Part shown: in pieces, positions 24,277-30,200 of the stretch
How the letters are laid out: every line of letters begins with the position of its first letter
Numbering within the stretch: position 1 is the first letter of the stretch
NCBI RefSeq assembly: GCF_044324875.1
Contig: NZ_CP172185.1
Reading direction: 5' to 3' (one strand)
DNA from: Escherichia coli
GTDB lineage: Bacteria > Pseudomonadota > Gammaproteobacteria > Enterobacterales > Enterobacteriaceae
Length of the DNA: 64,000 nucleotides
Position numbers: made by a program

Positions 24277-27200
24277 TAACCCACAAAAATGCTTTTCCGT
24301 TCCTCTTTAATAAATTGTGCAACTGGTTAACTACCAGTTGCCATAGGGATATTTTTTATCTTTGATAAACTCAAGTACATATTCATCGTCTCCAAGAGAA
24401 AAATCATGCCGGGAAATTCCTTTACACATTTCCATTTTTTCACCTGAAACCGTTTCTATCAGAATCTGCTTATCCGTCAGGCGAATATTGGGCTTGTCAG
24501 GTTTCTCCAGCCATACGCGTACTTTTCCTTCTGGAGCCAGACCGATTAACAGATACCGCAGATAATACTTTTCACTGCCACCGCCTGGTGGTGAATAAGG
24601 TGTGAGCATCAATTTCCAGACGTCTCCCGCCAGCGTTATCCAGGTTTCATACACTTTTTTATCAATCACTGAATCCCAGCAGAAATGGATAGACATAGGG
24701 GGATTTTTGGCTTTATTGAATGATAACACCCCAACCCGAAGATTATCTCTCCACTGACCAATAGTAGTGGAACTCGGAGCGGTAGCATCCAGCGTTCTGA
24801 ACTGATAATAGATACCATCAGTGTCCAATAGTTCTACATAGGTAACTTGTGCTGGTAGCGCATTAGGGTAGAAAAAAAGGAAATACCATTCATCATAGGG
24901 TGCAAGCAGTGATATTTTTTCTTTCGCTGCTGTCTGGACTGATCCGGCTATCATTAACGCAATGGTTAATCTATAAATTATTTTAGCTGTTATTTTCATT
25001 GTTACTTACCAGTTACCATAGGGATATTTTTTATCTTTGATAAACTCAAGAACATATTCATCGTCTCCAAGAGAAAAATCATGCCGGGAAATTCCTTTAC
25101 ACATTTCCATTTTTTCACCTGAAACCGTTTCTATCAGAATCTGCTTATCCGTCAGGCGAATATTGGGTTTGTCACGTTTATTAAGCCATACCCGTACTTT
25201 TCCTTCCGGAGCCAGCCCGATTAACAGAAACCGCAGATAATACTTTTCACTGCCACCGCATGGTGGTGAATAAGGTGTGAGCATCAATTTCCAGACGTCT
25301 CCCGCCAGTGTTATCCAGGTTTCATACACTTTTTTATCAATCACTGAATCCCAGCAAAAATGGATAGACATTGGTGGGTTTTTGGCTTTATTAAAAACTG
25401 ACGACATCCCTGATACTTTCTCGCTCCATTGTCCAACACTTCCTGGACTGGCATTGGTACTGGCCAGCGTTCTGAACTGATAATAGATGCCATCGGTATC
25501 TAATAATTCCACATAGGTAACTTGTGCTGGTAGGGAATCAGGGTAGAAAAAATTGAAATACCACTCATCATAGGGTGCAAGCAACAATATTTTTTCTTTC
25601 GCTGCTGCGTTAAAGTTAAGAACCATAGACGTAATAACAAACAGTAATTTTATATTAAATTCCATTTTGTTTATTCCCTTGCATATCGTATATAGTTCTG
25701 GTCCAATTTTCATCCGGCCGATTAACAAAACTAAACGTCTTAAACGCTGATACTTCAGCAGACACCTTATTTTTTAATCGATAATCGACGGTATTCCAGT
25801 TGGAAGAACAGTGTAAATATTTCCCAATGGTTTTAAGCTCATCATCAGAAAAAGGCATCGGCGCTGTACACAAGAGAACGGCTTTACCCTGAGAAATTGC
25901 TTTTTCACATATTACCTTTAAATGACTGGGAACTTTTAATTCCTTATCAGCAACAGAAATGGCATCAAATACTACCCCTGCCTCTTTAGCGACTTCATAC
26001 ATTACTCTTAACGCAATCTTTGACCAGTCATTGGTGATCGTTCTGCGAAATGTCACCGCTGCAGCGACCCGTTTTCTCACATTACCTAAGTGGTCAGGCG
26101 ACGCTATTTCATCAATATTGGATTCAATTTTTAGGACACCAGAAGGCAGAATCGGAGCCAGCGTCGAATAGCGCCACAATAACTCTGCCTGCTGTACTGC
26201 TTTTTGGTAAGCGCTTGTCGCTTCCATCGGCACATTTCCCAGTACCGTTTCAATCGCCGGGCGACTTAAAAACAGGTACTCATCTTCCTGTGGGTCATAA
26301 CCGCCACCAATATCAGCATGTGATCCAGGGAAACTTAATTCTGGCCAGCTTTCCTTTATGCTGTTGAGGCAAAAGTTATAGCGACATTCGTTCATTGCTG
26401 TGAGCTGGAATACATGTTTGGCCACACCTGGCGGTAACTTCACTTTTACCGGAAAGTTATTACCATCATGAGGGTCAAAACCATCCATCAGCCCTCCGAT
26501 GGCTGCAACTGTGTCAAAAATACCTAAAAATTGCACTTCCCCGGAAGGTTTACCTAAATATTCAACTGACTGAAATGCCGTCGCAATGGTTTTAATCAGT
26601 ACGGGATCACGTTCAAATACGCGATTAGTAAAGTGCCGTGCGGCTGCCGCCCCACGACTAAAGCCAAATACGTCAAACTGTAGACGCTTAATTACTAGTT
26701 TAGCATCCTTTAAATCAACAATAATCTCTGCCAGTGTCTCACGAAGCAGTGATATCGCACGGTCAGTTTTGGCAATTACCCCAGTATCATTATTTCCTAG
26801 CCCCATTCCTACCAGAGAGTCTGCTTTATTATTTTCAGTGCCAATACCTTCAATATATATTTTTTCCTGAATATTAAATACATCATCATCTAAAACTAAT
26901 TGCCGATGATACAACTCATTCAACCAATGAATATTCGTATAGTAATTCAAATAGCTCTGTACTCCGGATCCCGTTTTACCCTGCTTGCTCATACATTGTT
27001 TATTAAACGAGGCCAAATCCTGGACATCCAGACCATAGGTTTCTGGTTGGCAAAAACTCATACGTAAATTCGTATTGGTTAAATTGTTTCCTGTGCCATC
27101 AAAGAATACGCCAATGGTGAGGATAATTTCTCGTTCAGGCGGTATTTCTGGTTTTTCCTCAACAGGTAAGAGCGTCGGTGGGAAAAGGCGATTATAATTT

Positions 27201-30200
27201 TCAGGTGTGAGTAAATAACTAAATTCTGTATTGGCTGTAAGATGCTTACAGTAGATATATTTGTAGTGTATTGTTATATATTGATAGTCGAGTTCATTTT
27301 CTTTTATTATAATCTGATTCTGAGTTAACGTTGCACCGCGGACTTCAATATAATAATAACTTTCCCATTTCCCATATTTATTAATACGATAAAAATCAAA
27401 CTCAAAACGGCATCGTTCGTTATTATTAATGCAATTCATCAGCAGCGGTGAGCTTTTATCGAGAATTTTACAAAATTGTATCGCTTGATGATTAATGCCA
27501 AATCCTGTATTACTCACTCCTCCCTGAAAACTAAAAACAAATATTTCATCTTCATGTCCCTGTTGATACCGATTCCCGACAGAGGCTTGCGTCCCGCATC
27601 CTGCAGAAATATTACCTTGTTGCTCCCCTGTAATGCGTAAATATATAATGTCACCCATATGATTACACCCATTCCATAGATTTTAATTATATAATATAAA
27701 CTTAATAAACATCTCATTTGGCAATGTATATTAATTATATGTTTGGGCATAACAATTTTTTAATTACGTGATGCACTAATAATAAAGCCGTTTATCTACC
27801 AGGTAGAAATAAACGGCTTTGTCACATCACCCCACAAACTGCCTGAATAGCGCCTTACCCTTAACCAGTCGCGCGCCAAGCCAGCCGCCGAAAAGTGACA
27901 GCAGCAGCGCACCGCTACAAGGCAGAACAATCCACAATCGCCAGTCTGGCTCCCACGGGAAATCAAACACTTTCGCCTGCAACACCGCCAGTGCCGTTTC
28001 CGCACCAATTGCGGCCACCAGGCCGGATACAAACCCGAGCATGGCGAACTCACACCACAATGTCGTGCGCAGCAGTTTTTTCCCCGCACCGAGTGTGCGC
28101 CACACCACCAGCTCCTGATGACGCTGACGCATTCCCACCTGCACCTGTGCCAGCAACAGCAACATACCGCAGGCGGTGACCAGCACCACCATCACCTCCA
28201 GCGCCCGACTTACCTGCTCCAGCACCTGACCGACCTGTTTTAAAATCGCGCCAATGTCTAACAGGCTAATGGTAGGGAACTGGCGGTTGAGTTGCGTCAA
28301 CATGCCGTTGCCATTCTCCCAGCGGAAACTGGTAAGCCAGCTCTGCGGTTGCCCGTCTAATGCCCCTTCAGGGAAAATAAAATAGAAATTAGGCCGCAGA
28401 CTTTCCCAGTCCACTTTGCGCAGGCTGGTCACTTTAGCGCGGAACTCCTGGGTATCGCCCATAAAAGTCACGGTATCACCGAGGGCAACGTTTAAGCGTT
28501 TCGCCAGCCCCTCTTCCATCGACACTTCATCGGCTTTTGGCGGCCAGTTACCGGCGACAATCGGATTATGATCGGGCCGCGTATTTTGCCAGGTAAGATT
28601 AAGTTCGCGATTGAGCGCCTCATCTTCATTGCCTTCTGTCGGCTTGCCGTTAATCGCCGTCAGTCTCGCCCGCACCACCGGATAAAATGATTCCGGGACT
28701 ATCTGATGTTCCGCGAGGAACGCTTTTAGCGGTGCTACCTGTTCTGTGGCGATGTTAATTAAAAAGTAGTTCGGGCTTTCTGGAGGTAGCTGCTGCTGCC
28801 AGCGGTCGAGCAGATCGCCACGCAGCACCAGCAGCAGTGCCAACAGCATAAAGGAGAGCGAAAATGCCGAAAGCTGGCTTAACGTTGACCACGGCTGACG
28901 TAACAGGCGGCTAACCGCCAGGCGCAGAGGCAGCGATTTCAGCGTCATGCGGCGAAGTACATTCAGCAGCATCCAGCCCAGCACACCGCACAGCAAAGCC
29001 AGTACTACCGCGCCCGCCAGCACCGCCAAAAGCAGCATGCTGCCACCCATTAATCCGGCGAGCAGCAGCACAACCACCACACTGACAATCGGCAGATAAA
29101 ACTTCAGCGGCCAGACGTTCGCGACCACATCATTACGTAATACGCGTAAAGGCTGCGTTGCCAGTAACAAGCGGTATGGTCGTAGCCCCACCAGCAGCGA
29201 GATAACCGTCATGGTGCCCAGCGCCCATAGCCACGGCCAGAGGCTGGCTGGCGGTAGTGCAGCAGGCAGAACGGGCTTGAGCAGCACCATCAACACGTTT
29301 TCGAACAACAGGCCTATCGCCCCACCGGTAACGGCTGAAAGCGTCAGCACCATCAACCACTGACCGACGATTAGCTTACGCAGTTGCGCTCGCCCTGCCC
29401 CCAGCGTTTTGAGGATCGCCACCAGATCGTAGCGACTGCGACAGTAATGATTCATCGCCACCGCCACCGCTGCCACTGCCAGCAGCAAGGTCAGAAGCGC
29501 AGAAAGCAGCAGGAACTGTTGCGAGCGTTCCATCGATCGCCCCAGCGCGCCTTCATCCTGTTCCAGACCGTACCAGCGTTGTTCGGGTTTAAGCTGAGGT
29601 AACAACCATTTCTCATAGCCGTCGAGCTGGTTCTCGTTGCCGCCGAATTTATAGCGCCAGGTGACCCGACTTCCCGGCTGCACGGCTCCGGTTTTATCGA
29701 CATCCGCCAGATTCATCATCAGACGCGGAGCCATCTGGAAGGGGTTAAAACCGGAATCCGGTTCCTGAATCACTTCTCCGGCAATCCGCAAGGTGGCATC
29801 ACCCACGTCGATGGTGTCGCCTGTTTTCAGGTTAAGCAGTGCCATCAGGCGTGGGGCCAGCAATACGCTGCCCGCCTGCGGTTTCAGGCCTGGGGGATTA
29901 GTTTGCAGATCGCCATACATCGGGTAGATATCATCCACCGCTTTGACGTTCGCCAGCTGCGGTGTGTCGCCTGCAAATGTCATGGTGGCGAAAGTCAGCT
30001 GCTTGCCGACTTTCAGGCCGCGCTTTTGCGCTTCCTCCAGCCACGCTTGCGGCACTTCGCGCGAACTGCGCAACGCCCGATCGCCCGCCATAAACTCACG
30101 GCTTTGCTGGCTTAAGCCCTTCTCCATGCGATCGCTGATATTGCCCAGCGCCAGCACGCAGGCCACCGCCAGGCTTAGCGCCAGCCAGACAATTAATAGC

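Follow-up and report, generated by a model that had tools for sequence, protein, structure and literature searches.

Hotspots of gene turnover flanked by core genes are known in Escherichia coli and other bacteria, and such sites carry alternative cargo between the same core genes. Experiments have identified Hcp-ET2/ETi2 of E. coli PE321 and STEC004 as a Tle1 phospholipase, which depends on a secretion system of type VI (T6SS), together with its immunity protein (reviews PMC6730261 and PMC6099711). Immunity to Tle1 in enteroaggregative E. coli (EAEC) is provided by Tli1, a lipoprotein of the DUF2931 family (bioRxiv 10.1101/2024.03.05.583533). Here, we describe a 64,000-nt stretch of E. coli DNA (contig NZ_CP172185.1, referred to below as the window), in which an AT-rich island between the core genes mnmH and ybbP carries a module of this kind, composed of a gene for an Hcp-Tle1 fusion effector and two DUF2931 immunity genes. 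Taken together, the results make it very probable that the island is a self-contained Hcp-ET2/Tli1-family operon residing at a recombination hotspot, and that it is an old occupant of the site whose low GC content is stable.

Hcp-ET2/ETi2 shares with the island its architecture, in which an N-terminal Hcp domain precedes a C-terminal DUF2235/Tle1 phospholipase and the gene for the cognate immunity protein comes next, as well as the E. coli host and the organization as an orphan module away from the T6SS cluster. It differs in that its summaries (PMC6730261, PMC6099711) are silent on the chromosomal site, on alternative cargo and on an immunity array of one to four copies. EAEC Tle1/Tli1 (PDB 6sjl/6ski) has a homologous toxin domain, in which the serine of GxSxG, the Asp and the His are all retained, and an immunity protein of the same DUF2931 family. 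However, EAEC Tle1 travels as free cargo on the VgrG1 spike of the Sci-1 T6SS while the island lipase is covalently fused to the Hcp tube subunit, and EAEC Tli1 is an outer-membrane lipoprotein while the signal peptides of the island proteins are devoid of a lipobox cysteine. The RhsD element of K-12 occupies the same mnmH-ybbP spacer and is likewise free of mobility genes; its products include a polymorphic toxin together with immunity and orphan fragments, and its upstream region is AT-rich. It is, however, unrelated to the module in sequence or domains (no nucleotide similarity to the rhsD segment was found), it measures about 7.3 kb in comparison to 3.6 kb, and in the census described below each state excludes the other at the ybbP junction. 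As in core-flanked hotspots in general, the same two core genes are retained, there is no integrase and exchange occurs by recombination in the flanks, but what sets mnmH-ybbP apart is that toxin systems make up three of the alternative cargos.

Since this type of effector has already been characterised and the effector-immunity type published, the value of the locus lies in population genetics and not in mechanism: it is a new documented example of a core-flanked hotspot, a cleanly bounded, integrase-free site at which interbacterial-weapon and toxin-antitoxin cassettes alternate within one species, with counts for 5,426 genomes and with recombination breakpoints directly visible. A full-text literature search, whose incomplete coverage makes it no proof of novelty, returned no paper describing mnmH-ybbP as a hotspot.

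The island and its genes

The mnmH and ybbP genes are convergent and the island fills the spacer between their 3′ ends (Table 1). Its boundaries are identical in BLAST comparisons with K-12, 536, PK8566 and QL57EC, where homology stops at 24258 and resumes at 27822-27825. An earlier interpretation of this DNA, made from the sequence alone (the sequence-only reading), had placed the element at 24280-27826, which is right to about 20 bp; the refinement is the left break, located 21 nt inside mnmH. The last 21 nt of mnmH (24259-24279, seven codons) are thus island-derived. Because of this position of the break, island-bearing strains encode an MnmH of 368 aa with a variant C-terminus, while in the other cargo states, K-12 included, the protein has 364 aa and ends with EWVKAR. 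The corresponding 1107-bp form of mnmH was present in all island-bearing strains examined.

The GC content of the island, 39.5%, is the minimum among all 3.57-kb windows of the 64 kb (median 0.537, 5th percentile 0.462), in comparison to 52-56% in its flanks. In 500-bp windows, GC was 0.33-0.47 over 24250-27800 versus 0.50-0.61 in the flanking genes, and GC at third codon positions (GC3) was 0.34-0.39 for the three island genes versus 0.55-0.67 for allS, mnmH, ybbP and ybbA. The three module genes, all on the minus strand and arranged as one operon, are the only substantial open reading frames (ORFs) of the island, and none of its ORFs encodes an integrase or a transposase or belongs to an insertion sequence (IS). 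No tRNA gene was found in the 64-kb window, no Rfam family in 22000-31000, and no terminal direct or inverted repeats at the island, whose sole repeat is a 675-bp tandem duplication of the immunity gene. An origin as an integrase-mediated mobile genomic island was rejected, given the lack of integrase or transposase ORFs, tRNA and terminal repeats. The AT-richness relative to the flanks and the absence of an integrase, transposase or IS, both put forward in the sequence-only reading, are thus confirmed by composition and by ORF, tRNA and repeat searches, and the same two genes do flank rhsD in K-12 as it had stated, where they bracket ylbG, rhs fragments, ybbC and rhsD.

Table 1. Coordinates of the island, its genes, the flanking core genes and predicted signals in the window
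Feature	Position	Strand	Basis
mnmH (tRNA 2-selenouridine synthase), core gene, left flank	23173..24279	+	annotation of E. coli AF40, the nearest complete genome
Variable segment (island)	24259..27824	.	ends of homology to other cargo states; GC 0.395
Terminator-like hairpin overlapping the stop codon of 'b', operon end	24319..24341	-	consensus match
DUF2931 immunity paralogue 'b', 222 aa	24331..24999	-	Pfam PF11153 E=5e-26; direct repeats D1/D2; protein alignment
DUF2931 (Tli1-family) immunity gene 'a', 219 aa	25006..25665	-	DUF2931 annotation in AF40; 81% identical to 'b'
Hcp-ET2-type effector, 667 aa	25655..27658	-	TIGR03344, Pfam and PDB 6sjl matches
Sigma-70-like promoter match (TTAAAA, 18 nt, TATAAT)	27734..27763	-	consensus match in AT-rich leader DNA, upstream of the effector gene; predicted function
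Perfect 12-bp-stem hairpin directly after the ybbP stop codon (I11)	27784..27820	.	inverted-repeat search
ybbP (ABC-transporter permease), core gene, right flank	27827..30241	-	annotation of E. coli AF40

The effector begins with an Hcp/TssD domain of approximately residues 1-150, recognized by TIGR03344 over residues 1-149 (E=2e-36, 125 bits in comparison to a curated cut-off of 58.9) and by Pfam T6SS_HCP PF05638 over residues 6-138. A Tle1-like catalytic domain follows (Pfam PF09994, E=1e-10), and residues 173-661 align with EAEC Tle1 (PDB 6sjl, E=1.4e-127). We take S197, D245 and H310 of EAEC Tle1 to be its catalytic triad; these residues of the 6sjl chain are aligned to identical ones in the effector, namely Ser334 of a GFSRG motif, Asp382 and His447. 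By this architecture and by its homology to Tle1 the protein is assigned to the Hcp-ET2 kind. Pfam and NCBIfam gave only Hcp, Tle1 and DUF2931 in the module, with no RHS/YD repeats, and PADLOC returned no defence-system match for the three island proteins. The TIGR03344, Pfam, 6sjl and PF11153 matches agree with the earlier proposal that an Hcp-lipase/immunity module holds this position.

The start of immunity gene 'a' overlaps the effector stop by 11 nt, and gene 'b' is the 675-bp tandem duplicate of 'a', with differences found mostly in the signal peptide and in one hypervariable loop. No relatives of the immunity protein were found in PDB by sequence. The N-termini of 'a' and 'b', MEFNIKLLFVITSMVLNFNAAAKEK and MKITAKIIYRLTIALMIAGSVQTAAKEK, are hydrophobic signal peptides with no cysteine, so the lipobox of EAEC Tli1 is not present. 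By inspection, they look like signal peptides of the Sec/signal peptidase I type, and since they lack the lipobox cysteine, both proteins would be soluble and periplasmic, not lipid-anchored. As to the signals in the noncoding parts, the hairpin following ybbP probably terminates this gene and insulates the promoter of the module.

The size of the immunity array was variable, from 1 to 4 copies in the strains examined, in the arrangements a; a,b; a,c; a,b,c; and a,c,b,c. The DUF2931 paralogues are mosaics that combine two hypervariable loops, at approximately residues 70-95 and at 190-210, with signal peptides of two types. Copies of the 'c' type start inside the signal peptide and may therefore lack export. 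Arrays are located at 24331-25665 of the window, at 15325-17334 of locus L002 and at 2656-5340 of locus L013.

This array of 1-4 mosaic copies stands against a near-invariant toxin, whose alleles differ at 11-24 of 667 residues in the strains examined, and such a contrast would be expected if the island were mainly defensive, that is, if selection kept the DUF2931 array because it protects from competitors attacking with Tle1-type toxins, and if the effector were a passenger which often cannot be delivered. The same idea is favoured by JJ1886, which we take to belong to clade C of sequence type 131 (ST131) and which keeps an intact module. In ST131 clade C, tssM is reported to be disrupted by ISEc12 (PMC10711316), and since JJ1886 retains the module despite this reported disruption, retention driven by immunity is possible. 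ST131 is a major clinical lineage, carrying the module with an expanded immunity array while its clade C is reported to have no working T6SS (PMC10711316). Nevertheless, we regard a mainly defensive island as unlikely, as in every allele examined the effector ORF is full-length and its catalytic residues are intact, and as dN/dS of the effector is well below 1 (0.0071/0.0282 in comparison to JJ1886, and 0.052/0.183 in comparison to Escherichia whittamii). Moreover, published Hcp-ET2 is an active T6SS-delivered toxin (PMC6730261, PMC6099711), and the 'c'-type copies, starting inside the signal peptide, may not be exported. The preferred reading is still that of an effector-immunity operon.

Alternative cargo and recombination at the junction

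The occupancy of the mnmH-ybbP junction was determined in 5,426 complete E. coli genomes. The rhsD-type junction was found in 2,880 genomes (53%) and the Hcp-ET2 module in 573 (10.6%). A short mnmH-ybbP spacer was present in 1,899 genomes, and its three subsets were separated by state-specific queries: a dinQ/AgrB-like type I toxin-antitoxin with repetitive extragenic palindromic (REP) sequences (about 1,315-1,332 genomes, about 24%), REP repeats only (about 456 genomes, about 8%), and a 58-bp hybrid deletion scar (128 genomes). By subtraction, about 74 genomes have an unclassified junction. The junction thus has at least five states, which exclude one another and have their boundaries and breakpoints in common. 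As so few genomes carry the module, it is variable and not core, and since the number of genomes which hold it anywhere and the number in which it adjoins ybbP are both 573, the E. coli module is always located at mnmH-ybbP. Alignment against K-12 and the E. coli panel has in this way catalogued the alternative cargo, and the expectation of the sequence-only reading that polymorphic toxin cassettes are exchanged here holds for the Hcp-ET and Rhs states but does not extend to the dinQ/AgrB-like and REP-only ones.

The dinQ-like insert, of approximately 570 bp, contains a 27-codon DinQ-like ORF, the Rfam AgrB antisense RNA (RF02891, 53.6 bits) and REP sequences. In E. coli PK8566 it lies at 1760-2478 of locus L005, equivalent to 24259-27824 of the window, and it represents a second copy of a type I toxin-antitoxin, away from the K-12 dinQ locus. 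The scar, found among others in ATCC 11775, the type strain, is a fusion of the initial 32 nt of the REP-type spacer with the right half of the island hairpin (27784-27820). It is most simply explained as a remnant left by deletion of an Hcp-ET2 island. In E. coli DETEC-S589, the scar is located at 8984-9041 of locus L007, and its right half matches 27797-27824 of the window.

Recombination tracts were mapped in two strain pairs, with AF40 and with JJ1886 as the partner of the window. In the flanks, the window and AF40 differ at 259 of 14,237 positions (1.8%), while over 23851-27612 there are 3 mismatches in 3,762 positions versus 68 expected (Poisson P=1e-25). This tract of low divergence reaches 408 bp into mnmH (1 mismatch versus 7.4 expected, P=0.005); its start lies between 23850 and 24114, inside mnmH, and its end approximately 46 bp inside the 5′ end of the effector gene. 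For JJ1886, identity profiles (500-bp and 1-kb) are confounded by the DUF2931 paralogues, and per-gene dS and direct ungapped comparison were used instead. The dS value was 0.012 for the Tle1 domain, 0.085 for the Hcp domain, 0.15 for mnmH and 0.16 for ybbP, which places the Tle1 domain more than 10-fold below the flanks (Fisher P=5e-14). The mismatch density changes from 0.6% (25655-27160) to 3% (27161-27826) near the Hcp/Tle1 boundary at 27163/27164. Being based on few single-nucleotide polymorphisms, this step hints that a resident Hcp domain may be followed by an exchangeable toxin and immunity part, which is also the case in other polymorphic toxins.

A purely vertical history has also been considered, in which the module is ancestral, its patchy distribution arises from deletions and insertions, and no homologous exchange takes place. 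Such a history would accommodate the presence of the module at the same site in three species (see below) and the scar with half of the island hairpin in 128 genomes. We find it very improbable, since the dS of the Tle1 domain in comparison to ST131 is so far below that of the adjacent core genes, and since the near-identical AF40 tract ends inside mnmH on one side and inside the effector gene on the other; such sharp mosaic boundaries require recombination. Mosaic boundaries within the module, and in a core gene that flanks it, fit homologous recombination, and not pure vertical descent. Thus, homologous recombination at the junction is supported, and the hotspot with this type of exchange which the sequence-only reading had suggested gains support from the shared boundaries of the at least five states together with the mosaic divergence whose crossover lies inside mnmH.

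Age of the module and its occurrence in other taxa

In E. whittamii, the DNA is collinear across mnmH, the island and ybbP, and the effector dS is 0.18 versus 0.24-0.32 in the flanking genes. In Salmonella enterica subsp. houtenae, the gene order is ybbA, ybbP, a porin-like gene, Hcp-Tle1 (61% identity), DUF2931, mnmH and purK, and the module is AT-rich too (GC 0.42-0.44 versus 0.55-0.59). Because the same site is occupied in both taxa, the module is an old occupant and its AT-richness is no sign of recent arrival; and because the Salmonella module is AT-rich as well, the low GC content is a long-standing trait. In Pseudocitrobacter faecalis, the module lies 4.4 kb from ybbP, beyond the same porin-like gene and a MetQNI-like transporter. 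The porin-like outer-membrane protein (377-379 aa, 89% identical), encoded between ybbP and Hcp-Tle1 in S. houtenae (locus L024, 6451-7584) and in Pseudocitrobacter (locus L016, 1895-3034), is absent in E. coli.

These data bear on the possibility that the island was imported recently, as foreign AT-rich DNA brought by a mobile element or by site-specific insertion and displacing rhsD. The GC and GC3 values far below those of the flanks, the restriction of the module to 10.6% of genomes, and its lower divergence than that of the flanks within E. coli, which shows recent movement between lineages, would all be in agreement with such an event. However, no integrase, IS, tRNA or terminal repeats accompany the island, the same site is used in E. 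whittamii, with divergence near the flank level, and in S. houtenae, the Salmonella module is equally AT-rich, and there is no indication that rhsD was present earlier in this lineage. Recent foreign import therefore appears distinctly improbable. For the same reason, namely the module at this site in E. whittamii and S. houtenae, the direction implied by the 'replacement' of rhsD in the sequence-only reading was not borne out. As the locus shows, a cassette may be strongly AT-rich and yet an ancient resident of its site, which calls for caution in equating low GC with recent import.

Fusions of Hcp and Tle1 are common in Enterobacteriaceae, with examples in Salmonella, Atlantibacter, Kluyvera, Enterobacter, Lelliottia and Cedecea, and in every context examined they belong to a small orphan module which lies between core genes and has one or two DUF2931 genes. 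In S. enterica, one such context consists of kdpFABCDE, ybfA, Hcp-Tle1 (69% identity), one or two DUF2931 genes and phr (locus L032, 8453-12338, and locus L033), and members of the Hcp-Tle1 cluster at ybfA-phr are also named from S. bongori. At megablast sensitivity, no homologue of the ybfA-linked Salmonella module was found in E. coli. In K-12, the ybfA-phr interval holds rhsC (locus L028, 7930-12572). Given the K-12 positions of rhsD and rhsC, two Rhs sites therefore coincide with Hcp-Tle1 sites, and this parallel is a testable lead as to where effector cassettes settle. One might speculate, and we do so tentatively and with considerable doubt, that Hcp-Tle1/DUF2931 and Rhs are systematic alternatives at a few intergenic landing pads across Enterobacteriaceae, as long-lived presence/absence polymorphisms predating the split of Escherichia and Salmonella. 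If true, this would imply balancing selection or a shared targeting constraint on the sites of T6SS-effector cassettes.

Proposed function and surroundings of the island

By analogy to the published work on Hcp-ET2 and EAEC Tle1, we infer how the module may be delivered, may act as a toxin and may confer immunity. The Hcp domain would enter the inner tube of a T6SS encoded elsewhere in the genome, and the fused Tle1 phospholipase would be fired into neighbouring bacteria, where, acting from the periplasm, it would degrade the phospholipids of the membrane. The exported DUF2931 proteins would shield the producer and its kin, and additional paralogues with shuffled hypervariable loops may broaden this protection. 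Homologous recombination would carry the alternative states of the junction from one lineage to another, the crossovers lying either within the module or in the core genes next to it, with no machinery encoded by the element itself. The module is an old occupant of the site in Escherichia and Salmonella, with a stable low GC content which gives no sign of recent import.

Several observations weigh against this account. The assignment to Hcp-ET2 is made by architecture and Tle1 homology, the immunity proteins are without the lipobox described for EAEC Tli1, and the promoter and the terminators are consensus matches only. There are no T6SS core genes in the 64-kb window, so delivery of the effector in the source strain is a prediction only, and as JJ1886 keeps an intact module though tssM is reported to be disrupted in clade C, the module can persist without an active weapon. 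The evidence for recombination comes from two strain pairs. Finally, between E. coli and Salmonella the Hcp-ET and DUF2931 proteins are approximately 60% identical, in comparison to 88% for YbbP and 92% for YbbA; such high divergence of effector and immunity fits fast evolution, and it is also possible that E. coli and Salmonella each captured a different allele at this hotspot independently.

The window as a whole contains ppiB, the pur and all genes, then the island, followed by cueR, a type I secretion system and a SiiEA-like adhesin. At 3091-3126, between ybcF and purK, AF40 has IS1397 (IS3 family), while the window is devoid of it. Another variable spot lies at approximately 37200-39020, which is poorly conserved in comparison to AF40, being in part 82% identical and in part unmatched; it corresponds to the region which in AF40 encodes a YadA-family autotransporter adhesin. 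By collinearity with AF40, the region from approximately 39000 to 64000 carries cueR, the type I secretion system with its HlyD-family adaptor and its permease/ATPase, and a repetitive giant adhesin of the SiiEA/BapA-like kind, whose internal repeats are mutually 72-76% identical and which is 94% identical to that of AF40.

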